A DNA stretch of 64,000 nucleotides. Origin: Eledone cirrhosa (Eukaryota). Position numbers and translations under genes: made by a program. Below are positions 26,291 through 55,136 of the stretch, piece after piece (the first letter of the stretch is position 1; each line of letters opens with the position of its first letter). Location: positions 378,324,001 through 378,388,000 of the forward strand of contig OZ024740.1 in NCBI GenBank assembly GCA_964016885.1. The letters run 5' to 3'. The notes below the pieces were generated by a model. That model was not told the origin of the DNA, did no database searches, and saw only the letters and a list, made by a program, of their open reading frames with translations.

Positions 26291-26291
<1 letters not shown>

Positions 26292-26728
26292 TATACGATA
26301 TTAATAAATGGAAACTATATTTATAAAACCATATTTATTTCATTATACATATTTCAGGGATACCACATTAAATTATGGTATGCCTTCATCAGACAAAATA
26401 CAATATATAACAGTTTTACAAATAGGTTTGACGTACCCTTTAAAATACAACCATTACTTTTGGAGCCTCCAAAAGTAATGGTTGTATTTTAAAGGGTACG
26501 TCAAACCTATTTGTAAAACTGTTATATATTGTATTTTGTCTGATGAAGGCATACCATAATTTAATGTGGTATCCCTGAAATATGTATAATGAAATAAATA
26601 TGGTTTTATAAATATAGTTTCCATTTATTAATATCGTATATCTACTCCAAAAATTTGTCGAGTGCTTTATATCAGTTATAAAAATATTTACTTGTTGTAT
26701 CCCAACAACTTTAAATAGAACTTTTGCA
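26291..26728 (+). mobile_element. Penelope-type fold-back element 1 (175-bp perfect palindrome arms plus unique tail)
   Basis: 26291-26465 is the reverse complement of 26467-26641 with a 1-nt centre. It contains a hammerhead; tail 26642-26728 has TCGAGTGC; (TA)n on both sides. Confidence 0.8.
26532..26596 (+). ncRNA. Type I hammerhead ribozyme (mirror copy on minus strand, 26336-26400)
   Basis: Stem I TATTTTGT/ATGAAATA; CTGATGA 26540-26546; stem II AGGcATACCA..TGGTATcCCT; GAAA 26577-26580; near-palindromic stem III ATATGTAT; predicted cleavage after AUA (26588). Confidence 0.75.
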
Positions 26729-26744
26729 TATATATATATATGTC

Positions 26745-27080
26745 ATATTTATTTTACTCTGGGTCAACATTTGTCTGATGTAGTCTTGATGTATACGGTG
26801 TAGAACCTTTGCTTTATACATTTTAGTTTAGCTCAGTTTAGTACCATTTCCTGTCAAATCCTAGACCACATTCAAAGAAAGGCCATTTGATTAATTGGCA
26901 AGAAGTCACTCACAAACACAGTTCACCTCCAGATTGTCTTCTCTCCCTTCTACAATGGCCTCTGTTTATCAGAGCTAGCTGGACTTATACTATCTCAATT
27001 TAAGTACTCCTGACTCACCAATCTCTCCTACTTTCTTCCTAGGCTGTCTACTCTTCCTAGGCTCTGTACAAACTACTTTG
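26745..27080 (+). mobile_element. CR1/L2-type LINE 3' remnant
   Basis: LDHIQRKAI*LIG and FYNGLCLSEL; homologous to 31060-31138 joined to 34483-34560. Confidence 0.55.
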
Positions 27081-30000
27081 CCTAGTTCTTACTCCCCAGA
27101 ACACCTTTTGGAATCCCCTCCTTGTACATATTTTTTCTGTAGTCATAAACTTGCAACTGTTTAAGAGGAGAGTTAACAGCATTAATCAAAATGGTCTCAG
27201 AGGGCTTGTAAAGGCCATGGGCACAACCCCTTCCTCCAGACAAAACCAATAAAAACAGAATAGAAAAACATTGGATCAGATGCCTATAATTGCTAACCTG
27301 TTTATTATAAATTTTAATCAATTTATTTTGACTATCATTATAACAATTTCTTTCGAAAATTGTTGTTCTTTTACATCAATTTTAAAATTATAGAGCAATT
27401 ACATATATACCATCATAGAAATAAAAATATTACAAAATAGTACAATTATTAATTCGTTGTATTGGTTCCAAAGGTATTGTTTCGACTGATAAATTTTATG
27501 AATAATAAGTAAGATGTAAGTTAGGTTAAGGTATTGAAAGTTACTGTAAACTGGCATCCATAATTTATCCTTAAGTCTGGATTTTTCTATTATGAATTTT
27601 GGGGAAATAATTTCTACCTAATTACTACATCTCAGAAATGGATGAGATTTGTTTTGTTGCTTTCAACCTGAAAGTGTTGCACCATTGCAACTCATGATCA
27701 GGAAGCAATACCTGCAAGTAATATGTTCTAAATAACATGTCTAGGGCAAAATGAGTCAGCTAAGTAGTGGTAATACTGTACTACATCCTTCTTCTTCACC
27801 TCGTTTTTCTCACTACCACTCACTGTCTCTACTTACATCATTATATCAACATCTTTTACAATATTATATAATATCATTTCTACAATCAATATCATAGTGA
27901 TATTAATAAAATTAAACAAAGATACATATTGTATATTAGTTAAAAATAAACAATTTTTTTGTGAGAGATAAATTTGTGCCAGAGTGAGTCTATTTATTGA
28001 GAAATTACAATTAAAGTAAGAATATGCTTTCTTTCAGATGTAGAAATTCTAGAAGTGTGCTTGTCAGGCAGTAAGAGTTGTTTGTTGGCTCTACTTATAA
28101 ACTAAAAGCATTCCGTGCCAGTGATAAAAATAATCTCACTTATAAATTTCGACCAGAAAATGTTATTTATATGACAAAAGACAACTATTAATATTTATCA
28201 TTATTATTACTATATAGCAGTGGTTACTAAACATATTATTGGGTGGGTGGGGGAATCTTGTATGCACTGTGGATATTTGAACATTAAAAAAATGTTGAGA
28301 ACATTTTATAATTAAGATAATTAATAACCAAATATACTAAAAGTGTCAAAGAAAGTGATCTAAAAAAAGTCTCTGGTTTAGGATTGTTAAAAAAAGATTG
28401 GGTTTGAATTAGAAAACACTATAACTAACATTTTTATCTTTCTGATAAAAAAAAAAAAATGAAAGACATTTTTTATCTTCTATGTTCTAGTTAAGATATG
28501 ATTAGTCCTGTTATCAATTTCATTGCATGTCATATAAGCAATGTTGAAATAATTAATCAGAGATTAGTAGATTTTTTTTCTGCTAGGAATCAGACATTTC
28601 TTTTAAATTATAGTAAAGTGATGTAAGAGGTTGTATATTTTTAAAATTGTATAACACAAAAAAATATTTAGAGAAATTAAATTTTTGTCAATATACATAA
28701 CATATTGAGACATCTTAATTAGAGATCAAAATTAAATCAAACTCTCAAACTATATCTCATTTCCCTTCAATAGGGACTCGCACTCAACATATCATACTCA
28801 CAGAAATTAATTACTAAAAATTACCTCCAATAAGTCTAGCAAATGTACAGCCTGTGTAGAAAACATAGTAAAGAAATAAAACATGCACAAACATACTTAG
28901 AGCACCAACAAGCATTATATTTGACCATCACAAATAAACAAGAATAGCACTAATGCTAATTTTACCAGATCCTCTAACTTTTCCACAACATACTACACAA
29001 AAAAGACACAAAACAAACAAAACACACACACACTTTGTACTATTATAAGTTATATACAGACACCATTCATAGACTACTTACACATGCCAAAAACAAAAGT
29101 AGTCAAAATTAAACATTACCTTGTTTTCAAGTAGCACATTTTATTTCCACAATCTCCAGCCAGCAAAATCCTTGCCACTACATTATAGTAAACTCTAAAC
29201 ATGCAAACTCATCTACAATGCTACCCTAAGAACTTTATCCTTCCCACATAGTCTAGACAATTTAAACAACTCATAGATACAAAAACAAATTGTAATATCA
29301 ATAACCTCATCATCCATAAACAATGCATACTATTGATAAGTGTAGATAACCTCAATTGTTATACTGTGATCATGTCTGCCATGCTTGCCTCTATTGTAGC
29401 CATTGACAGAACTTACAAGCATATAAAAACAGACTGGACAATGAAAAAGTGCTACAACCTGAACTGCCACATTGCACTCATACAATAAAATCACTGCATT
29501 TTCAAGAATTGAGTATGATCATCAACTAGGCACCAGAATAATATATAGAGAACAATGGATAAATGACTAACTGTGTATTCCGTTTAGTCATTTGATTTGT
29601 TACTTACATACCACAGGTTTTCTCTATCAGAGATGATCTAGGGTTACACAACAACATAAAATACTTAAAATTGATCTGCCTGTTATCATTAGCAATATCA
29701 GTTGGATGAACAATTTCAATCTGAAATTAACCTCCAAACCAACATTTCCATAGTCATCACAAACTCCGTATTTATTAGGTCATCCACCCCTATCTAATCA
29801 ATGCAACACAATTGACCAAATCTCTAATACTTCAAATTTGGTTACTGGCCAGTTTTATGTCAAATACCACTGGAAATATTGTGCTTCATCAATGACTAGA
29901 GGAATAAGATTTGTACAGTCTAGCCCCTGATCTCTTTTTGTTGTGGAACTCTTTTTTTTATCATAAATGAGCCTCGAACACTCTTTGCTTTTCTTAAGAC

Positions 30001-30089
30001 TTTATTTCTGAAGCAATGACAAAAGAAGTTCTCAGCATGTCTGTGTCCATGAGTAAGCCATTTACAAAGTGACGAAAGCACTTTGACGT

Positions 30090-31138
30090 CTAGCAAAGAA
30101 GAGTTCCACAACAAAGGGAGATAATGGGCAAGACTGTAGAGTCTTATTCCTCTACTTACGAAGATGATTTTCATTAACTTTCAGAATCCTCCTATTTACC
30201 ACTCCTTTGAGTAGCACTTCTGCTATCAAAACCTTCATATTTGCTGCCCACTTTGCTTCCAACACTACAATTCACACACACATCAAATCTCCATCCAAAC
30301 TTCTCCACTTTAACGAACTCACCATCTTGTACATACAATTACTAAATGTGAAAGGTCTTTGGATTGTTCTAATCCACCTAGGCAATTAGTCCAAATGGTG
30401 TCCATTCCATTATCCCTAAAACAATACTCTCCAGAGTTAGCACCTTTCACCATTAAACTCTTCAATCTTTCTCTCAGGATTTATCCCAATATTTTGAAAC
30501 ATGGGTTCGTATGTTCCATCCCCCCAAAAAGCAATGTCTCTGTCAATTAAGAACCTAGCACCCTCACTTTCAATATCTCAGAGATAATGGAAACTTTTGT
30601 AAACTATGACCATAAGTCTCTCTTCATTTGTGACTGCCAATACAGTTTCCATAGTACCAAATCTATCAAAAATTCTTTCTCCTACACCATGCACCAAATG
30701 GTTCTCACTCATAAGAACTTTAGCAAAATCAATCTTTTTCACTTGGAAATATCATAGCTATGTTGCCCACTTATCGGCTGCATCTCTCTCTTATCTCTTC
30801 AACTGGAAGTTTCTTTTTAGATCATATCAAAAACAGAATTATAACCCTCAGCATTATTACAAATTCTACACCTCACAATCTCAGATGAACTTTCACAGAG
30901 ACCTCATACACTTAACATTGCCCAATAAACTGCATCCCAAACACATGGCATCTTCATCAGAGTGATAAATTATTTCAAACCTGGTCAGTTGCTGATTCTT
31001 TACACATTGGTGCACTGTTCACATACATAACACAGTGGTGCTTGTGCACACATAAACACCCTAGACTACATTAAAAAAGATGGTCATTCACTTACATGCA
31101 AAACCTCGTGTTATTCTTTCTCTCTGTTTTTGTACCAC
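30090..31138 (+). mobile_element. CR1/L2-type LINE RT remnant, interrupted by the RTE insertion and resuming at 34483
   Basis: LKQYSPELAPFTIKLFNLSL..KHGFVCSIPPK and LDYIKK; sequence resumes TATAATAGTCTCTAC after the RTE tail. Confidence 0.65.
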
Positions 31139-34100
31139 GAGTGTCGACAAATGGCCAAAACTCTGAGTTGGTACCATCAATGTAGGCTCAATGAAAGGAA
31201 GAGCAGGAGAAATCATAGAAATGCTAGAGCGAAAGGAAATTGATGTATGCTGTGTGCAAGAGACTAGATGGAGAGGAGAGTTTGCCAGAGTCCTGGTAGG
31301 AAAAAGTCGGTGCTACAAATTTTTCTGGGTGGGAAATGACGATGGGATGGGTGGTGTAGGTATACTACTAGCTGACAAGTGGGTAGATAAAGTAATCTCA
31401 GTGTACAGGGTAAATGCAAGAATCATTAAACTCAGACTAGTCCTGAATAAAACAATTACCACAATAATATCAGCTTACGCACCCCAATCGGGGCTGCCAG
31501 ACGAACTTAAGGATAGGTTTTACGAGTCCCTAATGCACACTACTGCTCTAACAGACGACAATGACTTCCTAATCATCGCAGGAGATTTTAACGGACACGT
31601 AGGTAAACACTGCGACGGCTTCAATAGAGTACATGGAGGCCATGGGGTTGGCACAAGAAATGAGGAAGGATTCAGACTTCTAGAATTCTGCGATGCCAAT
31701 GACATGTCGATATGTAACACAAACTTTAAAAAATCCGACAACCACCTGATCACCTATAGATCAGGGGAGCACTCCAGTCAGATAGATTTTATCCTCATCA
31801 GAGGACGTGACAGATGGACGGTCGTAAACACAAAAGCCTTCCCTAGTGAAAAATGTATATCCCAACATAGCTTAGTTGTCAGCGACCTCACGGTCAGAAC
31901 TAGACGAACCTGGAAACAGAGGCCAACCTGGAGAAGAAAGATCTGGAAGCTGAAAGTCCCCTCAACCAGTAACAGATTTAAAGATATTTTACTCAACGCC
32001 TACGACAGTAAAGAAGAACAGATAGAGACATACAATGTAGAAGAGAACCGGGAGTTCCTAAAAAATAATTTACTAGAGGCGACGGATGAGGTCTGTGGCT
32101 GGAGTAAGACCAAGCAGGAGGAGAGTGACTTGGTGGTGGAACAATAAGGTAGATGAAGCAGTTAAGGCCAAGAGACAGGCATGGAAAGAATGGAAGAATG
32201 GGGGGAGCAGGGTACATTACAGAGAGGCCAAGAGGGAAGCTAGGCGACAAGTATACTTAGCTAGGAGGGAAGCAGAGGATAGAAAATTCAAGCATGTTTT
32301 GCAATGTGAGGACCAGAAAGATTGCGAGGCAGTGTGTCAGAGATAGTTGTGATGTCATTGGAGAGAAGTGTATCCGGAATGATAAAGGTGAGCTTGCCCT
32401 CACAAGTGCTGAGAAGAAAGATGCATGGAAGAGTCATTATGATAGATTACTAAATGAGGAGAATGCATGGGAAGAAGAGACCCTACCCCAAGTAGACCCT
32501 ATAGAGGGGCCAGCAGTACAAGTCAGCAGCAACGTAGTAAGTAAGGCAATCAAAGATATGAAGATGGGGAAGGCAACCGGTCCATCGGGTATAGCTGCCG
32601 AGATGCTGAAGGCATCTGGGTCTGTAGGTCACACTATAACCACACATATTGTTAACCAGGTAATACTAGAAGGGGTCATATCAAAAGATTGGTGCAGTAG
32701 CATCATTGTCAACTGCTACAAAGGTAAGGGTGATGCACTAGATAGAGGAAACTATAGAGGTATGAAGTTGATGGACCAGGTCATGAAAGTAACAGAAAGA
32801 GTTATAGCACAGTTGATTAGGGACCGGGTGAAAATAGACAAGATGCAATTTGGGTTTGTACCAGGAGAGGCACCACTGATGCCCTCTTCCTTGTGAGGCA
32901 GTTACAGGAAAAGTACCTAGCTAATAGTAAGCCACTCTAATTGGCATTTGTCGACCTTGAGAAAGCCTTTGACAGAGTTCCACGTGCTGTAATCTGGTGG
33001 GCTCTTAGAAAACTAGGAGTAGATGAATGGCTTGTGAAAGCAGTACAAACCATATATAAGGGAGCAGTCAGCAAAGTTAGGATTAGCAATGAGTATAGCG
33101 AGGAATTTAGCGTACAGGTTGGGGTCCACCAGGGCTCTGTTCTTAGCCCCCTCCTGTTCATCATAGTCCTGCAGGCAATAATGGAGGAGTTTAAGACTGG
33201 ATGCCCATGGGAACTCCTGTATGCTGATGACCTCGCACTCATAGCTGAATCTATGGTAGAACTAGAGAATAAATTCCAAACTTGGAAGCAGGGACTAGAA
33301 AGAAAGGGTCTCAAAGTCAACATGACAAAGACTAAGGTCCTTGTAAGTAGACGAGAAAACAGAACCCAGATCCCCTCAGGTAAATGGCCTTGCTCAGTAT
33401 GTAGGAAAGGTGTAGGTAGGAACTCCATTCTCTGCCCCAAATGCAAACAATGGGTACACAAGAGATGTAGCGGGATCTCAGGAAGCTTAATTAAGAATGT
33501 AGGCTTCACATTCAGCAGCTGTGCTGGGACAGCAAGCAGCAAACAGCCACAGGAAACAAGTACCACCAATCTCTGGGAGGGCTCTGTAGAAACAGTAGAC
33601 AGCTTCTGCTACCTAGGTGACCGAATTAGCAGCGGAGGTGGGTGTTCAGAAAGTACAATAACTAGGGTAAGAACGGGATGGAAGAAGTTTAGGGAACTAC
33701 TACCACTGCTAGCTGCAAAAGGCTTCTCCCTCAGAATGAAAGGCAGACTGTATGATGCGTGTATCCGAACAGCAATGTTGCATGGTAGTGAGACCTGGGC
33801 GCTGAAGGTGGAAGACTTACGTAGATTAGAGAAAAACGAAGCCTGCATGCTCCGATGGATGTGTAACAGTAATATACGTGAACGACAAAGCATAAATGAA
33901 TTGAGAGAGAGACTGAGCATAAGAGGAATCAAATGCTGTGTGCAGGAGAGGCGGTTGCGCTGGTATGGACATGTGATGCGTATGAAGGATGACAGATTGC
34001 ATAAAAAAGTGCAGAGCACTGGAAGTTGATGGAAACCGCGGAGTGGGGAGACCCAAGATGACCTGGGATGAAGTGATAAAAGCCGACCTTACCCAATTAC

Positions 34101-34482: not shown

Positions 34483-37400
34483 CTATAATAGTCTCTACTT
34501 TCCTGAATTAACATAGCTAGCTGTATACTCCCTCCTCTCTTTCTCTCTTTACCCCCTACTGTGACTCACCTTGTAGAAGAACTCTGCTAGACACAACGCA
34601 ATACTTCTTTGATAGAATCGCTTTCCCTAGAATTCCCTTACTATCTGCATAGTTCAATATCAAGTGCACCAATCTCACTTTAAAAGACACTATATCTTCT
34701 GCATTATTCAACTTATATTGGTTTCCAATGTTTGAAAATCTGACCCTGATCCCCAAAACAATCAACATTTTAGCTTGTTATTTTGATGACCTTTTCTTAT
34801 AATCTCCCAGAGATAGTTGCAACACACATGGGAAAAGATGCTATGGAATGTATTATCAGTAGATTACCATTCAGCATATTCAGACGTTCTTCAACTATCT
34901 CAGACTACAAAAAGATCTTGAAAACCTTTGGATATAAATAAACAGGTAATTTGTGTAAATGGGACATGTAAAGTTTTGGGAAATTTTCAGTTATTTTTTG
35001 TAATTAGTGAAAAAAAAAAAAGTGTATTGTGTGGATACTAAAGGGAATCAGATACAGTTCTAAATCCTGAGTTTCTTACTACGAAGGAAAATTAGATGGA
35101 TTGGTTTTTATTAGACTATATACATTGGTAGGATAATATACATACAATTAAGTAGTGTTAATCGGCATACTATACAAAGAACATAAAAGATAAACAGCTG
35201 TATATAGGAAACTGAGGCGTTTAGAGTTAAACAGATGAGAAGGCAATGTTATTTATTAGCTTAAATTATCTTCCAGAACATTCCTGTATAAAGAAAATGG
35301 TTTAGAATTCAGTGAAAAAAAAACCCTTAAAATAGTATAAAATATAGAATAAAGCACTGTTACTACAAGGAAAAATTGCATAGAATTTAAAAAAGAAAGA
35401 AAACAAACAATTTTAAAGATAAAAAAATCAATTTATAAAAGTGAATGTTGGCATATATAGCTTTCACCTATGATTTTACCACATCTGCTTCGTAATTATA
35501 TATTGTAGCCTATTTTTAGGCATGAAAATATAGCTCTGTTTTGGGGCACGCCTGTATTGTGTTTTACAACATCTATATTTCTTATATGTAACATAACTTG
35601 CATAGCTTTTGTTAGTATATTATCATTCAGTGTCTTTTTAAAAAGAGATTTGCTACTCATAATGCAATTTCAGCTTAACCTATTCCATATTTTGCGAATG
35701 TTGTGTTTGCCAAGCTTACTTTTTCTCTCTTTTTATAAACCCAAAATACTGAGCACATTTTATTAAATTTCTATTGTCTTGAGATAGGATGGTCTTCAAT
35801 TGCAATTGAGGAAGCCTTCAAGAAAATTTTATCAAAGTAATTTAGTAATATATATGAAATAATATATAAAGAGGTATTGACATTAAAAAAATCTCTTACA
35901 GTTAGAATGCTAGATTTATTTATCAGTAGTTCAGAGTAACTTACATAATATTTTTTGATATGTTGCATTTATAGCAATTTTCTGGGGTTGTTGTTTATCT
36001 TCATTCCTGATTAAGCAGACCTATGACCAAAGGCATTCCACTTGTGACCATCCATATTTGTTCAGATATAGTATATTTAGGTCTACAATAGCATCACAAC
36101 TAAATACTCTTTACATCCTAAACAACACACCTACATACTTTCACCAAGCTAACTGCAACAACTCTTCTAACATTACCTTTTGCTCCTCACACCTAGCCAC
36201 CATAAGCATAGGACAAACAACTCCCCAACTCTTTTCTGACTATCTACTCATCATCATTACAACATAAATATCAATGAAAAAGATAAAAGTACCTCTACAA
36301 AACTTCAAAAAACTTAGTGGAATTTATTCCTGTAGGAGACAGAATAAAGTTTTACAGAATTCAACAATAACTAAAAAAAGCACTGTAAAAAAAAAAAATG
36401 TAAGGAAGGGAAGCATACAAATACAACCGCAATTACACAAACAAAAATAGCCAATTTGATACCATTCAAGGTTTTATCAAATTGGCTATTTTTGCATGGA
36501 CACAGTCGAATGACTGAAACATAAAAGGTGTGAAAGATATTGGACAACTTCAAACACAACACATAAAAAGAAATGAAACTCTGCAGTATACAAACAAACA
36601 AAAATCACCCAAAGAAAATAAATAAAAAAAAAAACCGAAAGAAATACAGAAAACTAACATGTGTATCCAACATTGACTACAAAATATATACTAAGTAATG
36701 AGCTTACATGACCTCACACTCTTACAAAACATCCACTCAGCCCCATACAGAGATGACATCATACTCATATGTTCCCATTATTCTCCAGATACAATTGCAC
36801 ATCTCCAACTCTACACCAATCTCTTAAAAACTTGCCTTAAAAAGAATTAAAGTAGCACATATTAGATCCATTTTCTCACTTCTTACCAGCAACACTCTTG
36901 GATTGCTAATCTGTCCTTTAAACCTTAATTACATAAAATGGTTCTTTTCAGTATATGCTACACATAGACCTTATCCATATACTACATTCACAACAAACAT
37001 TACTGAAAATGGTTCTAGTGTAAGGTAAACTTAGTTATGAATTATAAAGTTGCCAATTTATTTTTTGTAGAAATATTGAAAAAAACATGTAGTATGCTAA
37101 TATTATGGCAGTTGTCATCATCTCCACATTTGAATGAGAAGTATTTTTCCATAAATATGAAAATATTTTTTTCCCCCCTGATCTCATGAAGAAAGCACTG
37201 CCTACTTGTATTTGCCAAGGATGTGATGAATAAGCAACTAAGTCAATATATAAATTAGAATTGTTTCCAGTGATTAAATAATTTAGAGATACTATCTGCA
37301 TGAAAAACAATAGATAAATTACTGTTAACATATATTATTAGAAATAAATATGCAGTGAGAAAAAAATCCATATTAGTCAATGACTAATATTATTTTCATT

Positions 37401-40878: not shown

Positions 40879-41437
40879 TATATATATATAAATATATATA
40901 TATAAATATATATATATAAATATATATATATAGAGAGAAAGAGTTGAGATTTGGCATCAAATTGAGTTTATAAGTCACTGACCAGGCTATTGTTACAAGT
41001 TAAATTTAGTGTATTGACCAGGGATTGAATATTAAGTTACCATATTGCCATGCTACTGTTTGAAAAATAATTGCTCATTAAAAAAAAATGTATGTTTGTG
41101 TGTATGTATGTAATGTTTTTTTTATTAGAAAATTTTACCTTATTGATTTCAAAAAAGCTGATCAAAATGCTAGAAATATGATGGTTTCTCTGTGTTGACT
41201 CATGCACTTATTGCCTGTTATTCTAGTAGTTTACAATTCCTTCCTAGCAACACCAGATTAATTATTTGTTTGAATCAAACTCCTTTCTGTTGAAAGATTT
41301 GACCACTTTTATCAGACCATCATTCTCAATTTCCACTGTCTGTTTTAAAATTGAACATGCACTTATATTAAAATATACAATTTTATAAACATATAATATT
41401 CAAGATGGTTTCACTTTACATTATCATTCAAATATTG

Positions 41438-41771: not shown

Positions 41772-41805
<34 letters not shown>

Positions 41806-41806
<1 letters not shown>

Positions 41807-42454
41807 GTTATTCCGGGTTGAATCGGAGGTAACCACAGTAAGTAAGGTACTCAATACATAGCAGAGTATAACAGTTTTAATATAGATGAGATTCTACAGG
41901 ACTAGAACTGTTTCATTCATTTGAAATCATCAGGAATCTGGGTATCAAAAAATAAATATGGTATTTATAGGTCTCTACAAGTGGTAGGAGAGGGTGGGGA
42001 GTGGGATGGGTGCAGGTCATTCAAAAGGGAATTCATTAAAAGCTAATTCTACAAAGCTATAGTTTATTTTTATTTTTATTTTTATTTATTTATGTTTTTA
42101 GAGTAACAAGGGCAGACAGAATTCTATAAACAGGTTCCGGATGGCCTACCATTCCTTGTCAATAAGTTTCTCTTAAGCTAACAGATGTCTATAAAATCAG
42201 TGGGGGGTTAGTCATAGTCAATAGAATTAAAGAAAACATAAATAAATAAAAATAAAAATAAAAATAAACTATAGCTTTGTAGAATTAGCTTTTAATGAAT
42301 TCCCTTTTGAATGACCTGCACCCATCCCACTCCCCACCCTCTCCTACCACTTGTAGAGACCTATAAATACCATATTTATTTTTTGATACCCAGATTCCTG
42401 ATGATTTCAAATGAATGAAACAGTTCTAGTCCTGTAGAATCTCATCTATATTAA

Positions 42455-42458
<4 letters not shown>
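41806..42458 (-). mobile_element. Penelope-type fold-back element 2 (226-bp inverted arms, 134-bp spacer, tail)
   Basis: 41873-42098 is the reverse complement of 42233-42458, with a hammerhead in each arm; tail 41806-41872 has TTGAGTAC on the minus strand; (TA)n on both sides. Confidence 0.8.
42392..42442 (+). ncRNA. Type I hammerhead ribozyme (mirror copy on minus strand, 41889-41939)
   Basis: Stem I AGATTC/GAATCT; CTGATGA 42398-42404; weak stem II (T)TTC-AAAT-GAA(T); GAAA 42417-42420; stem III ACAG/CTGT; cleavage after GUA (42436). Confidence 0.7.
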
Positions 42459-42487
<29 letters not shown>

Positions 42488-42488
<1 letters not shown>

Positions 42489-42653
42489 CGAAGGAAATGT
42501 GGTAAGGAACCAGGTGGACCATAACGCACCAAAGTACTCAATACTTGAGGTAGTAGAGTGGGTAATAGGAACCAGTAAGACCCCGACAGCTGAGCTCAAG
42601 CCGTTTCGTCGAAACGGCTTGAGCTCAGCTGTCGGGGTCTTACTGGTTCCTAT
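42488..42653 (-). mobile_element. Penelope-type fold-back element 3 (44-bp perfect hairpin with the 3' half of a hammerhead)
   Basis: 42565-42608 is the reverse complement of 42610-42653. GAAACGGC..GCTGTC gives GAAA, stem III and GUC. Tail has TTGAGTAC (minus, 42534-42541); (TA)n flanks. Confidence 0.7.
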
Positions 42654-42672
42654 ATATATATATATATATATA

Positions 42673-42791
42673 TTTATTAAAATAACAGATTAAAGTTTAA
42701 GCAAAGAATCGTTGCTTTCACCCTAAAGTAATAATAATAAATTTGAAGACTAAAATCCTCTTTGGATTTTAGTCTTCAAATTTATTATTAT

Positions 42792-42795
<4 letters not shown>
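42673..42795. repeat. 32-bp-arm hairpin element between (TA)n tracts
   Basis: 42727-42758 is the reverse complement of 42764-42795 (loop TCTTT); shares TTTAAGCAAAGAA..GCTTTC and AAGA.YAAAATCC with 50348-50485. Confidence 0.7.
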
Positions 42796-42845
<50 letters not shown>

Positions 42846-43620: not shown

Positions 43621-43875
43621 TAGTAGGTATAAACTTATAATTTTAAACTGACATCTTACCTACTCAGCCATTGAGACTCCTTACAAAAATTAACTAAACA
43701 GCATGTCATTTTTGCAACAACAATATAAATAAAGAGTAAGATTTTCTTTACTCTGTTTTTCTTATTTATTTTCATCTTTATATCTTGCTCTTATATTTTT
43801 TCACATTTCAAAATTTTAGATGATTAGCTCTTAGAGAAATGTTATACAAATAACAAATATCAGAATTTGCACCTT

Positions 43876-46212
43876 TCATCATCATCATCATCATCATCAT
43901 CACCGTTTTACGTCCGTTCTTCAACGCTAGCATGGGTTAGACGGGTTTTCCTGTTTTGGGCAGTGTCTGGTCGGCTGACCATGCCTTGCTCATACAGGAA
44001 CTGATTTGGCTTGATTTCTACAGCTGGATGCCCTTCCCAACACCAACCTCATTTACAGTGAGTGCTGGGTGCTTTTTCATGGTGCCTACACATCCACTTT
44101 ACAGTGTGGGCTGGGTGCTTTTTTGCCGTGGCACCTCCACGACCACCTTGCGGTGGGGGGTGTGGGGGCATATTGTCTATATGCTTCAGCTTGTACCCAT
44201 GGGAGGTCGGGTACTCTGCATTACTGCGTGACGCCAGAGGTCACGGTCGTGTGTCATTGCCTTTGAGAGGTGTAATTGGGTAAGGTTGGCTTTTATCACT
44301 TCATCCCAGATTCTCTTGGGTCTCCCCACTCCGCGGTTTCCATCGACTTCTAGTGCTCTGCACCTTTTTATGCAGCTGTCATCCTTCATACGCATCACAT
44401 GTCCATACCAGCGCAACCGCATCTCCTGCACACAGCATTTGATTCCTCTTATGCTCAGTCTCTCTCTCAATTCATTTATGCTTTGTCGTTCACGTATATT
44501 ACTGTTACACATCCATCGGAGCATGCAGGCTTCGTTTTTCTCTAATCTACGTAAGTCTTCCACCTTCAGCGCCCAGGTCTCACTACCATGCAAAATTGCT
44601 GTTCGGATACACGCATCATACAGTCTGCCTTTCATTCTGAGGGAGAAGCCTTTTGCAGCTAGCAGTGGTAGTAGTTTCCTAAACTTCTTCCATCCCGTTC
44701 TTACCCTAGTTATTGTACTTTCTGAACACCCACCTCCGCTGCTAATTCGGTCACCTAGGTAGCAGAAGCTGTCTACTGTTTCTACAGAGCCCTCCCAGAG
44801 ATTGGTGGTACTTGTTTCCTGTGGCTGTTTGCTGCTTACTGTCCCAGCACAGCTGCTGCATGTGAAGCCTACATTCTTGATTAAGCTTCCTGAGATCCCA
44901 CTACATCTCTTGTGTACCCATTGTTTGCATTTGGGGCAGAGAATGGAGTTCTTACCTACACCTTTCCTACATACTGAGCAAGGCCATTTCCCTGAGGGGA
45001 TCTGGGTTCTGTTTTCTCGTCTACTTACAAGGACCTTAGTCTTTGTAATGTTGACTTTGAGACCCTTTCTTTCTAGTCCTTGCTTCCAAGTTTGGAATTT
45101 ATTCTCTAGTTCTACCATAGATTCAGCTATGAGTGCGAGGTCATCAGCATACAGGAGTTCCCATGGGCATCCGGTCTTAAACTCCTCCGTTATTGCTTGC
45201 AAGACTATGATGAACAGGAGGGGGCTAAGAACAGAGCCCTGGTGGACCCCAACCTGTACGCTAAATTCCTCGCTATACTCATTGCTAATCCTAACTTTGC
45301 TGACTGCTCCCCTATACATGGCTTGTACCGCTTTCACAAGCCATTCATCTACTCCTAGTTTTCTAAGAGCCCACCAGATTACAGCACGTGGAACTCTGTC
45401 AAAGGCTTTCTCAAGGTCGACAAATGCCAAGTAGAGTGGCTTACTATTAGCTAGGTACTTTTCCTGTAACTGCCTCACAAGGAAGAGGGCATCAGTGGTG
45501 CCTCTTCCTGGTACAAACCCAAATTGCATCTCGTCTATTTTCACCCGGTCCCTAATCAACTGTGCTATAACTCTTTCTGTTACTTTCATGACCTGGTCCA
45601 TCAACTTTATACCTCTATAGTTTCCTCTATCTAGTGCATCACCCTTACCTTTGTAGCAGTTGACAATGATGCTACTGCACCAATCTTTTGGTATGACCCC
45701 TTCTAGTATTACCTGGTTAACAATACGTGTGGATATAGTGTGACCTACAGACCCAGATGCCTTCAGCATCTTGGCAGCTATACCCGATGGACCGGTTGCC
45801 TTCCCCATCTTCATATCTTTGATTGCCTTACTTACTACGTTGCTGCTGACTTGTACTGCTGGCCCCTCTATAGGGTCTACTTGGGGTAGGGTCTCTTCTT
45901 CCCATGCATTCTCCTCATTTAGTAATCTATCATAATGACTCTTCCATGCATCTTTCTTCTCAGCACTTGTGAGGGCAAGCCCACCTTTATCATTCCAGAT
46001 ACACTTCTCTCCAATGACATCACACCTATCTCTGACACACTGCCTCGCAATCTTGAACACCTCCTGTTTCTGGTCCTCACGTTGCAAAACATGCTTGAAT
46101 TTTCTATCCTCTGCTTCCCTCCTAGCTAAGTATACTTGTCGCCTAGCTTCCCTCTTGGTCTCTATGTAATGTACCCTGCTCCCCCCGTTCTTCCATTCTT
46201 TCCATGCCTGTC
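43876..46212 (-). mobile_element. RTE family A LINE, 5'-truncated, with uninterrupted RT frame
   Basis: ORF 44186-46212 is near-identical to the 31139 copy, with intact YADD and a complete C4HC3 insert; (CAT)n tail at 43876-43902. Confidence 0.95.
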
Positions 46213-46329
46213 CTTTGTAGAAATAAAACTTTAAATGCCATTTTACTTTCAGTGTTAGAAGTATATCTTGTGTATGAAGAACCACAAGATAAATATGACA
46301 CTTCCTAAAATATCCAAACAACAGGATTG

Positions 46330-47290
46330 TAAGAAATGGGGTTAACAGAGGTTAACAAGTAATAATAGACTAGACAGGAAGCAAGAACATAGATTTATTT
46401 AGCATGAAAAGAAGCTGAGTAAGAAGAAGTTTAGCAAAGTATTTTGTGGTGAGAATGAGGAGCAAAAACTATTCCAATTTGCTAGGCAGTGGCTTCATTT
46501 GAACTAAGATTAAATAAAGATTCTGAAATGATACTTGTGTGTTGTACTCAGTGCCAGTGAAAAGTAAGAGTCATGTTAGTGTTATTTTGAGATATTATTA
46601 AATGACTGGATTGTGAAAATAAGATGATGATGGCAGGGAGAACTGCTAGTTATCAGGTATGCAGAGAAAATGAAAGAAGCAGCCCATGTAGGCATCATGC
46701 CATTCTCTTATATAATTAATCATGTTGTACAGGAAAATTGCTATAGAACTATCATTTATAAACTATTACAAGAGCAAAGAAGATGTGCTGGAGAGGCACA
46801 GTTATTGTGGACCAAAGTAGGAAAGTAACTAAGATAGTCTTAAAGAAATTAGAACAGGATATGCTTAAATTTGATAAGATATGGCTTGATTTTGTATCAG
46901 TAGGAGAAACTGCAATGCCTTCTTTCTAGTGAGACTCTCTTTATCATTTGTATATTAGAAGAAAACTTTTGACATTGTTCAATATGAGATTTAAGATAAA
47001 ATGTTAAAGACATATATGATGGTGCTGCAAGTAAAGTAATAGTTGACAAAATGTTTTCTAAAGAATTTAATGTACAGGTAGGTGTTCACTATGCAAAGGC
47101 CAGAAAGATATGAATCGAGGATGCCTTGATGAATGTGTAATGTTACCGTGCATAAGTCACATAGCATAAGCAAACTGAGAGAAAAGCTTGTCATAAAAGG
47201 AATTGGATGTAGTGTGCAAGAGAGAAGACTGTGTTGGACATGTGAGGCATATGGAAGATAGCAGCTACATAAGAAATGCATAAAAAATCA
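46330..47290 (+). mobile_element. Highly degenerate RTE remnant
   Basis: Decayed similarity to RTE linker and C-terminal segments (47090-47280 matches the MLRWMCN..ERRLRW region). Confidence 0.5.
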
Positions 47291-47667: not shown

Positions 47668-48990
47668 ATCATCATCATCAGCATCATCATTTTATGTCTG
47701 CTTTTCCCTGCTTGCAAGGGTGGGACAGGTCTTATTAAGCACGGCATCTCTCCATTCATCACGGTCCTTTGTCATCTCCGTGAGGTTCAGCGATCTGAGG
47801 TCTGCTCTCACCACCTCCGCCTATGTTTTTCGTGGTCTTCCTCTACTGCGTCTTCCTTCTACTGGGATTTCTTGGCACTTCTTTACCCAGCGGTCATCCT
47901 CCATGCGCATCACATGTCCATACCATTGCAGTCTTCTCTCCCGCACACTACAACTTATTCCTCTTATACACAGTTTCTCTCTCAACTCATCTATGCTTGG
48001 TCGTTCATGCACATTGACATTGCACATCCAACGGAGCATGCTTGCTTCGTTTCTCTCCGGCCGTCGCATATCCTCTGCAGTTGCTGCCCATGTCTCACTA
48101 CCATGCAGCATCGCGCATCTCACACAAGCATCATATAACTGGCTTTTCATTCATAGGGAGAAACCCTGCTTTGTCAACAGAGGAAGCAGCTCCCTAAATT
48201 TCTTCCAACCCGTCCTTATTCTAGATACTATGGCCTCGGAGCACCCTCCTCCCTTACTAATCTGATCATCTAGGTATCGGAAGCTAACAACCACCTCTAT
48301 AGGTCCTACCCACATTTGAAAAATGTGTCTATCACTGCGACTTCTACTGTCAAATTTCCCTGTACATCTACTGCATATGTAGTTTTCCCTACCTGTTAGT
48401 TTTCCTGCTATCCCACTACATCTCTTGTGTACCCAAGATCTGCATTGTGTACATTTTATAGAATTTATGCTAACTCCTTTCCTACATATTGAACATGGCC
48501 ATTTCCTTGATGGAATCAGAGTTTTGTCCTCTTTCCTACCTATCGACACCTTTATCTTAGCTAGGTTTACTCCCAGTTCTCTTGATTTCAACTGCTGTTT
48601 CCATAGCCAGAATTTATTCTCTAGCTCCTCTACTGATTCCACTATAAGTACCAGATCATCAGCATAGAGAAGTTCCCATGGGCAGCCAGTCTTCAACTCC
48701 TCTGTTATGGTTTGGAGGACTACAATGAACAAGTGTGGACTGAGGACTGAACTCTGATGTACTCCTACTTGTATCTGGAATTCCTCAATAAACTCCATTC
48801 CTACTCTCACTTTACTGACAGCACCCCTGTACATAGCTTGCATTGTCCTCACAAGCCATTCCTCAACACCTAGTTTCCTTAGGGACCACCAGATGACAGA
48901 TCGGGCTACTCTATCAAAGGCCTTCTCAAGGTCAACAAAAGATAAGTATAGTAGCTTATTCATCTCTAAGAACCTCTCTTGTACTTGTCT
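47668..48990 (-). mobile_element. RTE family C LINE, 5'-truncated, very short 3'UTR
   Basis: ORFs 48151-48963 and 47821-48150 (FVDLEKAFDRV, LYADD, WPCSIC..CTQC..H..C..CSRC); 5' end abuts (TA)n. Confidence 0.9.
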
Positions 48991-49005
48991 TTATATATAT
49001 ATATA

Positions 49006-49391
49006 TATATAATAAGAACAAAGTGGAGATGTTACATATGAGATTTATTGCTCAACCTGGTTACAAATGTTTCCCAGGCAGCCAGCTCATGATCTGGGAT
49101 GGCACACTCAGACCAGACTCCAAGTCTGCCTGATCCTCAGACCAGTGTTAACACAACAAAAATCACATCAATTCTGAAGATGAACCTGTGGTTCAAGCAG
49201 ACTTGGAGTCTGGTCTGGGGGTGCCATCCCAGATCATGAGCCAGCTGCTTGGGAAACATTTGTAACTGGGTTGAGCAATAAATCTTATATGTAACACCTC
49301 CACTTTGTTCTTATTATATACATCCTGCCCTGCATCGAGTGCTGACATTAGTACTCTCACTAGTTTTCTTCGGACTTACTGAACCTTTTGC
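49006..49391 (+). mobile_element. Penelope-type fold-back element 4 (128-bp imperfect inverted arms plus tail)
   Basis: 49006-49133 versus 49193-49320 inverted, with mostly CpG-type mismatches; tail has TCGAGTGC at 49335-49342; TA/CA repeat flanks. Confidence 0.8.
49057..49145 (-). ncRNA. Type I hammerhead ribozyme
   Basis: Minus strand CTGGT-CTGAGGA-TCAGGCAG..CTGCCTGG-GAAACA-TT-TGTA-ACCAG; all three stems pair; cleavage after GUA. Confidence 0.8.
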
Positions 49392-49443
49392 ACACACATA
49401 TATATTATTATTAGTACACACACACACATATATGTATATATAT

Positions 49444-49791
49444 ATCATCCTCATTTCATCATCATTTCATTTTACGTCCGCTTTTCCCTGCTTGCAAGGG
49501 TGGGACGGGAACTGATTCTGGCTTATTTCTACAGCTGGATGCCCTTCCTAACACCAACCTCATTTACAGTGAGTGCTGGGTGCTTTTTTGCCTTGGCACC
49601 TACACGACCACTTTGCAGTGGAATGATAGGGACTCCAGTCCCTATCATCTCATTTCTACAGCTGAGTAAACTGGAGCAATGTGAAATAAAGTGTCTTGAT
49701 CAAGGAAACAACACATCACCCAGTCTGAGAATTGAACTCACAACCTTTCGATTGCAAGGCCAATGCTCTAACCACTAAGCCATGTGCCTCC
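49444..49791 (-). mobile_element. SINE family 1
   Basis: Reverse complement of the 22438 copy; between TA tracts. Confidence 0.9.
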
Positions 49792-49814
49792 ATATGATAT
49801 ATATATATATATAT

Positions 49815-50326
49815 AAAACCGCCATGATTATTGACATATGAACGGTTTTTCGCCATATGCACCTTTTTAAAATGTGAACAATCTTTATCCAGGTATCGCT
49901 TTTATTGTAGGATCTTCTCTTTGGTGATATGTATATATTTTTTTGAATTAATGTTTATATCTTTATTTTTGGCTCTGATGAGGGCGCTGAATCTAGTATT
50001 AATCTTCACTGTATGTTTATCGATTTTCGGATCAGTAATCATTAACTTCATGTACAAATTAATCATTCAGCTTCCGAAACAAGTGGTCGGCCAGTAAATA
50101 TACGTATTCAAAAATTTGATGTTGTTTTCTCTGATATTTAATACATGTTTTTTAGTTCTGCATATAAGAATTTTGCTAGACATATTTTCTATGAATTACT
50201 CACTTTTTTTGCCTGTCTTGAAAACTATACGAATCGAGCACACTAACCCTCTCTCTACTGGCTTGTAATTTTCTTAGCTAATTACTTTCTTCTCCTCTTT
50301 AATTTGTTTGCCTGCTTAATATTTTA
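49815..50326 (+). mobile_element. Penelope-type hammerhead element 5 (no inverted arm)
   Basis: Bounded by (TA)n; contains a hammerhead; TCGAGCAC at 50234-50241. Confidence 0.7.
49970..50093 (+). ncRNA. Type I hammerhead ribozyme with long stem II
   Basis: Stem I TGGCT/GGCCA; CTGATGA 49975-49981; stem II GGGcGCTGAAT..ATTCAGCtTCC; GAAAC 50076-50080; GTC 50086-50088. Confidence 0.75.
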
Positions 50327-50800
50327 TATATATATATATATATATATAGTAATAGTAAATACAAAGATCAAAATCCGAAGAGGGCTTGATAAGGATTGTA
50401 TAAATAAGTATATATAAACCTGTAGAGCAAATATTTATTATTAGTACAAATTTAAGCAAAGAAGTTCTGCTTTCTTCTGAAACACACATATATATATTGG
50501 GTATCACTATCATCATCATCATCATCGTTTAATGTCCATTTTCCACACTAGCATGGCTTAGATGGTTTTGTTCCATTTGATGGAGGAATGGTCAGGAGAC
50601 CGTGTCTCGCTCGTACAGAATATATATGTGTGTATGTGTGTGTATATATATGTATATGTGTGTGTATATATGTATATGTGTGTATATATATATGTATATG
50701 TGTGTATATATATATGTATATGTGTGTGTATATATGTATATGTGTGTGTATATATATGTGTGTGTATGTGTGTGTATATATATATATATATGTATATACA

Positions 50801-50832
<32 letters not shown>

Positions 50833-50866
50833 CGTGTGTGTGTGTATATATATGTATATACGTGTG

Positions 50867-52802
50867 TCATCATCATCATCATCATCAACGTTTAACGTCC
50901 GTGTTCCACGCTTGCATGGGTTTGGACGGGGGGTAGTCCCACTTGAGGCAAGAGTGATTGTCTTGCTCACATAGGACTGTCTGGCAGGTTTTCTACAGTT
51001 GGATGCCCTTCCTAACACCAACCACATTTACAGTGTGGGTCTGGGAGGTTTTTACCGTGTTGCCTACACGGCCACATTACAGCGTGGACTGTGTGTTTTT
51101 TTGTCGTGACACCTACACGATCTCATTTGTTTCGGCCTGGATGGTGTGGCACCAACATAACTTTACATAGAACGGGGTGGTGTGGATGGGGTGGGGGTGG
51201 TGGTGGTGGGACGGTATTTTGTTAGAGATGCCTACTGGCTGTAGTAGGTTTTACTATGTATTTAGGTAAGGCGGGTCTTCTCTGTTACTGAGTACCGCCA
51301 AAGGTCTCGGTCCAGTGACATTGTCTTGGAGAGGTGTAAGTGTGTGAGGTCGGAGTTTATCAGCTCGTCCCAGGTTTTTCTAGGTCTGCCTATTCCGTGG
51401 CTACCGTCTATCTTTATTGCCCTGCACTTTGTTATACAGCTATCGACTTTCATGCGCATCACGTGTCCATACCAACATAGCCTTCTCTCGAGTAAACAAC
51501 ATCTGATCCCTCTTATTTCTAATTTTTTCCTTAGTTCGTTTATGCTTTGCCGTTCACGTATATTACTGTTACACATCCAGCGGAGCATGCAAGCTTCGTT
51601 CCTCTCTAGTCTGCGTATATCCTCTGCACACAATGCCCAGGTCTCACTGCCATGCAACATTGCTGTTCGTATGCAGGCATCGTACAACCTGCCTTTCATT
51701 TTTAGGGAGAACCCTTTAGCAGCTAATAGTGGTATAAGCTCTCTAAACTTTTTCCAACCAGTTCTGACTCTAGCTACTGTACTTTCAGAACACCCTCCCC
51801 CACTGCTGATTTTATCACCCAGGTAACGGAAACTGTCCACTATTTCTATAGAACCCTCTGCGCAATTGAAAGAGCTAGTATTTTGTGGGCACTTGCTGCT
51901 ACTTATTGCACCAGAGGACCGGCCACATGTAAAATCTATGTTCTTAGTTAGCTTACCTGTGATCCCACTACATCTTTTATGCACCCATACTTTGCATTTA
52001 GGACATAAAATGGAGTTTCTACCTACGCCTTTCCTACACACCGAGCACGACCATTTCCCAGAAGGGACCGCCGCCTTATTTTCTTTCCTACAAACTAGAA
52101 CTTTAGTCTTAGCCAGGTTAATTTTAAGGCCTTTTGATTCTAGGCCGTGCTTCCATGTTTGGAATTTCTTCTCTAGCTCGGCCATTGATTCCGTTATGAG
52201 TGTCAGGTCGTCTGCTGACTGTTTCTTTATACATGGCTTGTATAGCTCTCACAAGCCATTCGTCAACGCCTAGTTTTCTAAGAGCCCACCAGATAATGGA
52301 GCGGGGGACTCTGTCGAAGGCTTTCTCCAAGTCGACAAAAGCTAAGTAGAGGGGTTTACCTTTAGCTAGGTACTTCTCCTGTAGTTGTCGTACAATGAAA
52401 AGAGCGTCTGTGGTACTTTTGCCTGACACAAACCCGAACTGCATTTCATCTAGATCGATTCTCTCTCTGATTAGTTGCGCTATTACTTTTTCCGTGACCT
52501 TCATGACCTCGTCGATTAATTTAATGCCTCTATAGTTACTCCTATCTAGGGCGTCTCCTTTACCCTTATAACAGTTAACGATGATGCTGCTATGCCAGTC
52601 CTTCGGAACAACCCCATTCTGTACGACTTGGTTAACTATGCGGGTGACCATGGTGTGTCCCACCGTGCCAGATGCCTTCAGCATCTCAGCAACTATTTCC
52701 GAAGGCCCAGCCGCCTTACCCGCCTTCATATCCTTGATTGCCTTACTTATTATACTCCCCTCGACTAACACTGCTGGTCCCTCTATTGGGTCGATATGGG
52801 GG
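50867..52802 (-). mobile_element. RTE family B LINE, 5'-truncated, with ~150-bp internal deletion through the RT core
   Basis: ORFs 52124-52802 and 51262-52185; deletion at ~52214 (TGC microhomology) removes GVHQG through LLY; (CAT)n tail. Confidence 0.95.
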
Positions 52803-52824
52803 TATATATATATATGTATATGCA

Positions 52825-53308
52825 TGTAGGTCACGGAAAAAACAAAACCTGTCAAAGGGCAAGGGAGCTCTTAAGAGTCAATAGCCATCCAAAATCACCG
52901 GGAGAGATGACCCCTTAGCCTTTGTCAAGGCAGAATTCTAGGAGAAGGAAAACTCTGATATAACACCTGCAACCCTGATGGTATCCAATGATGTTGACTT
53001 GTTCTTCTTTTTGGTAAATATCATCTTGGTTAAGAGAGTGGGACTGGCTTTGTGCAGTGCCTTTGCTCACTATAAAAGCTTCACAGCACAGGCATTGCTT
53101 TATATCTGGAGATCTCTCTGCACTTGTCATCACATGGTACCATGGGCCCTGCACTATGTGTCAATAATGGTCACAAGTGTAGTCTTTGTACCAGAGTTTT
53201 CAAGTCGCTGGCTGGACTAAAAAGTCACACTCGTTCAGCTCATCGGTAGGGGTTCTCCTACATGGATATAAAGTAGTGGCCGTACTCGAAAACGAGTTGG
53301 CAGCCACC
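52825..53308 (+). mobile_element. Non-autonomous internally deleted RTE element, copy 2 (5'-truncated)
   Basis: Near-identical to 12250-12731; in a TA-rich tract. Confidence 0.8.
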
Positions 53309-53417
53309 ATATGTATATGCATGTATATATATATATGTATATACATATATATATATATACATATACATACATATATTCATATACATATATATACATACAT
53401 ATATATATATAATATAT

Positions 53418-54684
53418 AAGATCAAAAGATGGTTAAAGGAGTTCCATGTATTTTATTATGCGCATTTCAAAAACAAACATCATCATGCAATAATATTTGT
53501 GTTTTCATCAGATAAAACAGGAGAACATGATATGAAGGCTAAAAAACACTTGTGGATAGTGCAGTTTTAAATCAACATATGAAAAGTAGTTTTAGATTGA
53601 TGTGTGATATTGGGAAAAATATTTTATTTAGAGAGGGGGGGTGGAAAGGATGAAAAAAGGGGAGGAGATGAGAGTGAAGGTGGAGAGGGAGAGATGGGTG
53701 ATAGAGAGAAAGAGATAGTTTTTATAACTGAGAAAGATATATTGTTTTACATAGAGAGGTTGAAAACCGTTGGAAGATAATGTATAAATTAAAAGAATTT
53801 GAAAATTAACGAAGGGAAAAATATGTACGAAGAAGGAGAGGGAGTTAATATGTATTGAGATTAAAAAGTTTGATGATAGAGAGAATAGAATAATGAATTG
53901 CGGATGAATATTCTAACGTCAAAAAGTGTGTGTGTTTACAAGTAATATGGAAATTTGAAAATTAACGAAGAGAAAAAAAATTATTAAGGTTTGTGTATTG
54001 AAGGATTTGAGAAAAATAATGTGAAGTTAAGGTTTGTATATTGAAGGAATTAATAATATGTGCGAAGAAAGAGTTAATATGTATTAAGAATGAGTTAGAT
54101 GATGGGGAGAAAAAAATAATGAGTTAAGGATGAATAATCTGGCGTCAAAACAAATGTATATGTTATGAAGGATTTTACAAGGTGAAAATAGAGTAAGGGT
54201 AATGAGTAAACAAGTATTATAGAGTGTATAATACCCTTTGAAATAAGGTAGGAAGATGGGTATATTTTAAAAGAGGTGTATGTATATGTGCCTTTGAGAA
54301 AAGATTCTAAATTGATAAAGAATTGAATATTAGCTGTATACTTTGTGAAATGTCTTATGGAATTTATGCAAGCAGATAGAAAACAAATCTGATCGTCTAT
54401 TTATTATAGAATCTAGATTAGAGATAATGGTAAATTTTTCATTTAGGCAGAGATTACAGATTTTAGATAGAGAGCTGTTCAAGTATGAAGACGCAGAAGA
54501 AACCTTCTTCCAAAAGATGGTATATTTAAAGTTTTTGTCTTTCAAGGACCATATGAGTTCTGAGAGAGCCGTGTTGGTTCTTTTAAGTTTGTATTTAAAA
54601 GATGAATGATGATTATAGAGATGAGCTTTAAAAGAGGTGGAAGTGGAGCCAAAATAGGTGAAGGAATTGGTGTTAGTTCTAACC
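53418..54684 (-). mobile_element. Penelope-like element 3' fragment: GIY-YIG endonuclease C-terminal part, 3'UTR and hammerhead
   Basis: Open frame ~54668-54330: NSFTYFGSTSTSFKAHLYNHHSSFKYKLKRTNTALSELIWSLKDKNFKYTIFWK..CNLCLNEKFTII..INRRSDLFSICLHK, matching the YIG, FK.R.YNH..SF, C..CL.EK and N.RSE...C.H pattern of PLE endonucleases. Confidence 0.85.
53451..53517 (-). ncRNA. Type I hammerhead ribozyme with palindromic stem III
   Basis: Minus strand TTTTAT-CTGATGA-AAACACAAATATTA..TGATGTTTGTTTTT-GAA-ATGCGCAT-A-ATAAAA. Confidence 0.8.
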
Positions 54685-55116: not shown

Positions 55117-55136
55117 ATATGTATGTATATATATAC

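Follow-up and report, generated by a model that had tools for sequence, protein, structure and literature searches.

Penelope-like elements (PLEs) of the Hydra clade, with their signature motifs, hammerhead ribozymes, insertion into (TA)n and inverted 5' copies, have been described by Craig et al. 2021 (PMC8557442; this and the other papers are cited from those parts of their text that were available to us). The supplement of that paper includes Hydra-1_Obim from Octopus bimaculoides and Penelope-13_HM, which has an inverted 5' copy. In vitro, the protein of a Poseidon element cuts and extends both target strands, starts at two RNA sites that delimit a tail, is a predicted dimer and works independently of ribozyme cleavage (Frangieh et al. 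2024, PMC11167929). Pairs of motifs on opposite strands, 100-700 bp apart, were noted in Schistosoma in 2014 (PMC4209133), and the repeat annotation of Octopus vulgaris names Penelope families, the word ribozyme being absent from the part available (PMC13282606). The origin of inverted ends and one-sided tails, and whether PLE hammerheads cut, are stated as open questions in this literature (PMC8557442, PMC11167929, PMC4209133). Here we analyzed 64,000 nt of the Eledone cirrhosa genome (assembly GCA_964016885.1, contig OZ024740.1, forward strand positions 378,324,001 to 378,388,000; designated the window), located on the largest contig of the 3.0-Gb genome and carrying inserts of six families (E1 to E6), each between TA tracts. 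We propose, with a probability of about 0.75, that these are 5'-truncated ends of Hydra-clade elements, whose fold-back copies would form at insertion when two reverse transcriptases (RTs) copy one sense RNA from two fixed sites and the cDNA ends are joined head to head.

The six inserts lie where the original prediction, made from the letters of the window, had placed them, and four of them are indeed fold-backs with a tail on one side: E1 (26291-26727, 175/175 bp perfectly paired), E2 (41806-42457), E3 (42488-42653, 44/44 bp) and E4 (49006-49391, 115/124 bp). Type I hammerhead cores, which had been assigned to the inserts, were recovered on both strands of E1 (26540/26392) and on the minus strand at 49140 and 53511; inspection by eye added those at 42398/41933 and 49975. 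E4 has a full core in its left arm only. E3 contains just the GAAA-stem III-UC half of a hammerhead, as had been stated. The inventory was incomplete in that a seventh family, E7, had been overlooked at two positions.

By their motifs and layout, the six inserts are 5'-truncated ends of protein-coding Hydra-clade retrotransposon families, and these families are relatives rather than a separate non-coding retrozyme system. Their relatedness follows from a protein identity of 29-54% and from the motif (C/T/A)GAG(T/C)(G/A)C common to six tails; the initial description of the sequences as unrelated is thus incorrect. The predicted Penelope-like origin was confirmed, coding copies with PLE signatures existing for each family, and the suggested check for partners was positive, RT and/or GIY-YIG open reading frames (ORFs) adjoining other copies of every family. 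E6 is represented by a 733-aa ORF (locus L090) and by a copy with the layout pLTR-tail-ORF-pLTR (pLTR, pseudo-long terminal repeat; locus L094), E1 by ORFs of 566-619 aa, E3 by a 695-aa ORF (locus L351) and E2 by a 522-aa ORF directly after the tail (locus L116). The tail is accordingly the 5' untranslated region (UTR) ahead of the ORF. Fragments of the GIY-YIG endonuclease lie upstream of the E4 and E5 arms in the same orientation. RT (YxDD) plus GIY-YIG at the C-terminus occur in one ORF for E1, E3 and E6, and across two copies for E2. The GIY-YIG fragment predicted within the E6 insert is real, being 94% identical to the full family ORF, with a Pfam match (E-value 0.063) that falls short of the cut-off.

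The family proteins show RW, SDKT, YRDD, CxCx5C, a GIY-YIG-like pair and CxxC. RW(R/I), with a third residue other than K, and SDKT are found in E2, E3 and E6, the N-terminus of E1, E4 and E5 not having been recovered; the CxCX5C linker (e.g. CNCPIKNKC, CNCRNKSNC) is present in E1-E6, and CxxC precedes an E residue in E1, E2, E3 and E6. At the C-terminus, CLH and CRH but no CCHH were seen by eye in E6 and E1. Neptune identity, which was considered first, was ruled out by this motif comparison, the Neptune/Nematis signature (CX2-5CxxC linker, CCHH) being absent from the family proteins. They also differ from Naiad in the C-terminal endonuclease and the presence of hammerheads, and from non-LTR retrozymes, which are head-to-tail tandem units without coding partners in cis. 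Four long ORFs had no Pfam match to RT or GIY-YIG, and Rfam gave no hammerhead family among the 150 of 169 matches listed for the window, so that family identity rests on motifs. The 178 homologs retrieved are nearly all unnamed. Locus L055 (2110-3033, minus strand) holds the end of a GIY-YIG ORF from another kind of PLE, perhaps Naiad or Neptune, with a CxxCxxxxxxxC linker and what looks like a CCHH.

Tail sequences are abundant in the genome: exact copies number 1,532 for an E1 35-mer, 5,659 for an E2 36-mer and 5,558 for an E3 35-mer, with 0 for the reversed controls, and similarity searches gave 3,526, 786 and 228 candidates for E6, E4 and E5 (40 scored for each). E4 (copies 85-92% identical) and E5 (73-90%) are the older families. 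For structural analysis we used the first listed tail copies, 90 of E1, 70 of E2 and 70 of E3, all on one contig. Among these 230, 136 were scored as short fold-backs (E1 42, E2 43, E3 51). This tail-only sample overturned an impression that E1 is a fixed 440-bp non-autonomous unit, an artefact of a search favouring full-length matches. The predicted (TA)n targeting extends to these genomic copies, as TA repeats flank 219/230 tail ends and 133/136 tail-less ends, compared to backgrounds of 6.6% and 12.8%, respectively. Different families are stacked in one TA tract in loci L060, L086, L107, L118 and L158 and at 41774-42840 of the window, which suggests that such tracts serve as landing sites and that insertion may lengthen or duplicate them.

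The anatomy of the 136 short fold-backs carries the argument. In every case an arm with tail is paired with an arm lacking it, and all 136 tail-less partners end at the inner site A, the tail extending from there to site B. The tailed arm is longer in 48 insertions, the tail-less arm in 67, and 21 have arms of equal length. Arm divergence within an insertion amounts to 1.9%, 2.0% and 0.5% in the E1, E2 and E3 samples, versus 4.4%, 4.5% and 0.7% between insertions. The two arms agree on subfamily variants in 19/19 (6.1 expected), 12/12 (6.0) and 22/22 (12.5) cases for E1 and in 25/26 (10.3) for E2. Rare 15-mers are common to both arms in only 8/136 insertions; the window copy of E2 carries the same deletion variant in both arms, a variant seen in 0/400 fetched loci. 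Junctions show microhomology of at least 2 nt in 18/25, 17/29 and 7/34 cases (null 12-20%), and 48/136 fold-backs have inserted bases there. One tailed and one tail-less arm, either of which can be the longer, together with common variants and varied junctions, argue for two cDNAs made from one RNA and not for snap-back priming. Genome-wide, an E3 arm 35-mer is 1.8 times as frequent as the tail (9,963 versus 5,558 copies).

In the mechanism we propose, the (TA)n tract would be cut and RTs would be primed on both target strands, the latter by analogy to the Poseidon protein (PMC11167929). One cDNA would start from each of sites A and B, on opposite target strands, with one RNA or one source locus as template, and both would be joined at their 3' ends, head to head. 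Most short copies would stop at the capped 5' end of the RNA, generated at a start site about 30 nt past a TATA-like box, and such copies would be promoter-less dead ends. A small minority of E3 copies likely stops at the 5'-OH left by hammerhead cleavage. Transcription of E3 probably starts inside the ribozyme, which would yield the half hammerhead seen at 42488. Most templates were presumably uncut, because the arms run through the cut site.

The 5' edge of the longer arm falls into narrow intervals. Relative to the predicted cut it lies at -46..-41 in 27/43 E2, at -45..-39 in 33/51 E3, at -140..-129 in 20/42 E1, at -126..-123 in 8/14 E6 and at -48..-44 in 9/18 E7 copies; for E4 two pairs were read, the other rows being swamped by simple repeats. 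Each edge coincides with a pyrimidine-A step or is 1-2 nt away from it: CCAG in E2, 30 nt past TATAAATA; TTAGT in E3, 29 nt past TATTTAAA; TTAGT in E7, about 33 nt past TATTTA; and CTATC in E1, 26 nt past TATTAAAA. We consider it likely that the edge is a transcription start, predicted here from the sequence. For comparison, a TATA box plus initiator has been proposed for a rotifer pLTR, and Drosophila Penelope has an internal promoter without TATA (PMC2377424). A copy that begins at the edge lacks the box and would be a dead end. With the E3 edge inside loop II, half of the ribozyme is left in most E3 copies, the one at 42488 included. We set aside the possibility that the edge is a splice acceptor (YAG in E2, E3 and E7), as there is no constant upstream exon and E1 and E6 lack YAG.

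A second class of arm ends coincides with the predicted hammerhead cut. In E3, 2/70 sampled copies end both arms there. A genome-wide pattern search detected 304 E3 mini fold-backs, and in the first 50, inspected by eye, both arms end exactly at the cut in 19 (7 blunt, 12 with inserted bases), one arm is at or compatible with the cut in 13 more, and 18 do not end there. The excess of 19/50 corresponds to P 2e-10 for a chance rate of 1/15 and 0.0025 for 1/5, and extrapolates to about 115 loci, or about 2-3% of the family. Fetching 20 mini fold-backs, picked among the cut-centred ones, revealed a tail on one side only in 20/20. These ends probably record hammerhead self-cleavage in living cells.

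Several other routes to such structures have to be considered. Snap-back of one cDNA, or self-priming of an antisense RNA as hypothesized in print (PMC3846280), would copy the second arm from the first and thereby account for identical arms, head-to-head order and microhomology. However, a copied arm cannot reach past its template in the 5' direction, and the first arm has to be the one with the tail, whereas the tail-less arm is longer in 67 of the 115 unequal cases; nor is a reason given for the fixed end at site A. We judge this route improbable. The earlier reading of the fold-backs as non-autonomous retrozyme-like units that move as whole hairpins fits the short and non-coding nature of most copies, the existence of non-autonomous PLE derivatives (PMC8557442; bioRxiv 2026.07.22.740005) and the presence of sites A and B in a read-through RNA of a tailed fold-back. 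It is nevertheless contradicted by the coding copies of each family, by a continuum of arm lengths up to ORF-bearing copies, and by the arrangement of sampled copies, which are not in tandem arrays (one direct duplication, L098). Moreover, identical junctions recur across subfamilies and yet differ inside one; as the junction varies from copy to copy, the hairpin is hardly the mobile unit, and we assign this reading a slim chance. Long palindromes are unstable, and a perfect master palindrome that was inserted and whose centre was lost afterwards, or whose arms became homogenised, would account for variable centres and common variants. But the arms of the old E4 differ mutually (115/124) almost as much as copies do, which indicates that homogenisation is weak, and inserted bases and sharp edges are not marks of deletion; this scenario is very improbable. 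Fold-back chimeras occur in long-read data, but an assembly artefact is next to inconceivable given thousands of loci in which the tail is asymmetric, TA repeats lie on either side and the junctions are distinct. In addition, contigs of two short-record runs from one study, possibly of the assembly's own sample, show TA loose ends at both end sites.

A different objection leaves room for the two-cDNA model and concerns the nature of the 5' ends, which could pile up where the RT stalls, i.e. at the stem I boundary, the stem III base or a GGGG run, reflecting neither start site nor cleavage. Consistent with stalling, the edge is also the first base of stem I in E2, E4 and E7, the E3 cut lies beside a hairpin and G run, and Frangieh et al. 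saw, in the text available, no reads ending at the cut in their own element (PMC11167929). On the other hand, the E3 edge is inside loop II, and the E1 and E6 edges lie upstream of the core by about 70-80 nt. If the RT stalled at the stem III base, C17 should be part of the arms, but it is excluded on both arms in all 12 cases with inserted bases. Furthermore, a sister subfamily of E3 has a stronger stem III and yet fewer cut-site ends (7 versus 19 of 50, Fisher P 0.011), its core being C3-A8 mismatched in 4/6 long copies. Taken together, stalling appears unlikely, though a reasonable objection.

Beyond the overlap with stem I, further observations weigh against our interpretation of the fold-backs and their ends. 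Exceptions with a tail-only partner occur beyond the scored set (L083, L094, E7 in the window), and the other 94/230 copies were unscored owing to long arms, a partner outside the fetched stretch or solo arms. Arm concordance is uninformative for E3, which varies little. A TATA-like box at -30 is missing from the E6 edge, TCAT; such words turn up often in DNA as AT-rich as this; and the modal ends of E2 and E3 are 1 nt short of the proposed A. The cut-site counts were made by eye with a rough null; the peak is absent in E2 (1/50), ambiguous in E1 because of AT-rich sequence (4/50, counting the first 50 of 85) and, in the E3 sister subfamily, weaker than in E3 itself (7/50, counting the first 50 of 265; P 0.047). 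Finally, the fold of the E3 ribozyme has a z-score of -0.22, which is not significant.

Extending the two-cDNA model, we tentatively put forward, at somewhat short of even odds, that thousands of mini fold-backs are a fossil record of the Penelope cycle, that an RT dimer on one sense RNA fires once per start site on both strands of a cleaved (TA)n tract, that the ribozyme cuts in vivo and that the 3' product is itself reverse-transcribed. The E3 promoter would be inside the ribozyme, so that only the 3' copy is whole. Cleavage of E3 would then sever the priming sites from the coding RNA and act as a built-in brake, so that transposition is diverted into hairpins that lack a promoter; thousands of potential double-stranded RNA sites in this genome would probably stem from these.

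A hammerhead descriptor gave 357 matches in 1.55 Mb of fetched loci, which are enriched by design, and 0 in a shuffled quarter; about 14 hammerhead families occur in two or more fetched loci (22 clusters). Stem III has 2-4 bp in all except E3 (6 bp), and stem II of E2 is without the G10.1-C11.1 pair. The full E3 family ribozyme (locus L140) has a U3-A8 core and a long stem II and is the only one of 6 that folded with the hammerhead as minimum free energy structure. The E3 sister subfamily (L013, L048, L067, L100, L160, L305) has U3-A8 in 2 long copies and the C3-A8 mismatch in 4, including the diverged L160; these mixed cores provide a natural activity series.

In predicted folds of either strand, 75-92% of the bases are paired, in agreement with the expectation that, in fold-backs transcribed through, the ribozyme would be buried within a hairpin; on read-through from either side, the antisense arm is the first to be made. 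Several thousand perfect hairpins of 50-200 bp in one animal genome may matter for RNA editing and silencing; our literature search on cephalopod editing and Penelope found no paper linking them among those listed. Such short palindromic copies could easily be misfiled as miniature inverted-repeat transposable elements or short interspersed elements (SINEs).

Table 1. Positions and parts of the PLE-derived inserts in the window (coordinates from the first letter of the 64,000 nt).
Feature	Position	Strand	Remarks
E1 tail-less arm	26291..26465	-	end = RT start site A, inside TA tract; full hammerhead 26336-26400
E1 tailed arm	26464..26636	+	hammerhead 26532-26596; predicted cut after 26588; overlaps left arm by 2 nt
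E1 tail (site A to site B)	26637..26727	+	source of the 35-mer with 1,532 exact copies
E2 tailed arm	41806..42236	-	tail about 41806-41872; hammerhead 41889-41939
E2 tail-less arm	42233..42457	+	TATAAATA box 42362-42369; likely start A at 42392; minimal hammerhead 42392-42442
E3 tailed arm	42488..42611	-	3' half of hammerhead
E3 tail-less arm	42607..42653	+	predicted cut after 42633
E7, short rearranged insert	42678..42794	not assigned	CAGAAGA-core hammerhead variant
E4 tail-less arm	49006..49146	-	full hammerhead, core at 49140
E4 tailed arm	49186..49391	+	without CUGAGGA half; tail 49321-49391
E5 single tailed arm	49816..50325	+	hammerhead core 49975, 94-nt stem II; predicted cut after 50088; tail about 180 nt
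E7, decayed second copy	50349..50474	-	
E6 tail-less 5'-truncated arm	53418..54683	-	GIY-YIG ORF end (54330-54686), 3' UTR, hammerhead core at 53511

E7 is an abundant family. It shares the two end sites of the other families, its ribozyme core has an A at position 4, and its 5' edge is located at -46. A further E7 piece is located at 18305-18356 of the window, and in locus L086 an RT fragment lies between the two E7 arms. The 5' end of the E6 insert abuts a fragment of an RTE-like long interspersed element (LINE). Many pieces of RTE-like LINEs, separate from the Penelope-like finding, are found at 31167-34029, 38455-40999, 44186-46351, 47821-48990, 51262-52870, 54679-55197 and 57808-59235; they belong to at least two subfamilies, several are 96-98% alike, and they often end in (ATC)n beside TA tracts. 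The one piece scanned matched Pfam RVT_1 and PHD. A SINE family is represented by tRNA-like heads at 25948-26011, 49721-49784, 22447-22504 and 55501-55558 (Rfam tRNA, 28-30 bits). The plus strand at 18671-19591 contains an open frame of 306 codons resembling a host membrane protein, with hydrophobic helices, PPxY motifs and no Pfam match of note. An inverted repeat at 36442-36494 (20 bp, 13-nt loop) has neither TA flanks nor a ribozyme.

Clade, target, ribozyme, inverted copy, tail and opposite-strand ribozyme pairs are already known, and it is these families that are new. In the open-access literature we found no report of the rule of one tailed and one tail-less arm, of a start-site edge or of cDNA ending at the cut site, a search that did not extend to subscription papers such as Arkhipova 2006. 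The families provide an unusually clear genomic record of an unsolved mechanism. Being young and present in many copies, they yield counts by which the models can be told apart, and they point to exact bases. With the Hydra clade as described (PMC8557442) they have in common the order RT-linker-GIY-YIG, the RW and DKT motifs, the CxCx5C linker, the pLTR hammerhead and the (TA)n target, and Penelope-13_HM likewise has a 5'-truncated inverted copy with a ribozyme on both strands. The ribozyme core listed for Hydra-1_Obim had no match in the fetched loci. Compared to the clade as described in the available text, there are about 14 hammerhead families and thousands of copies here, tails measure 68-180 nt rather than 30-40, and short fold-backs dominate.

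As in the Poseidon element PAc of Anolis (PMC11167929), two RT start sites bound the tail, both strands would be cut and extended, and uncut RNA is the main template. However, the PAc tail is inside the ORF and not in a 5' UTR before it, and the PAc work, in the text available, did not connect the two sites with an inverted pair, nor did it detect RNA ends at the cut. Cervera and de la Pena 2014 (PMC4209133) described minimal type I hammerheads in metazoan PLEs, which resemble the present ones in their short palindromic stem III and the U3-A8 variant; in contrast to that report, each opposite-strand pair is resolved here as one insertion, stem III of E3 measures 6 bp and its stem II is long, and E7 has A at position 4. 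Animal non-LTR retrozymes are also short, non-coding and PLE-related and carry a type I hammerhead, but they are head-to-tail tandem units (bioRxiv 2026.07.22.740005), whereas the copies described here are head-to-head pairs continuous with coding elements.

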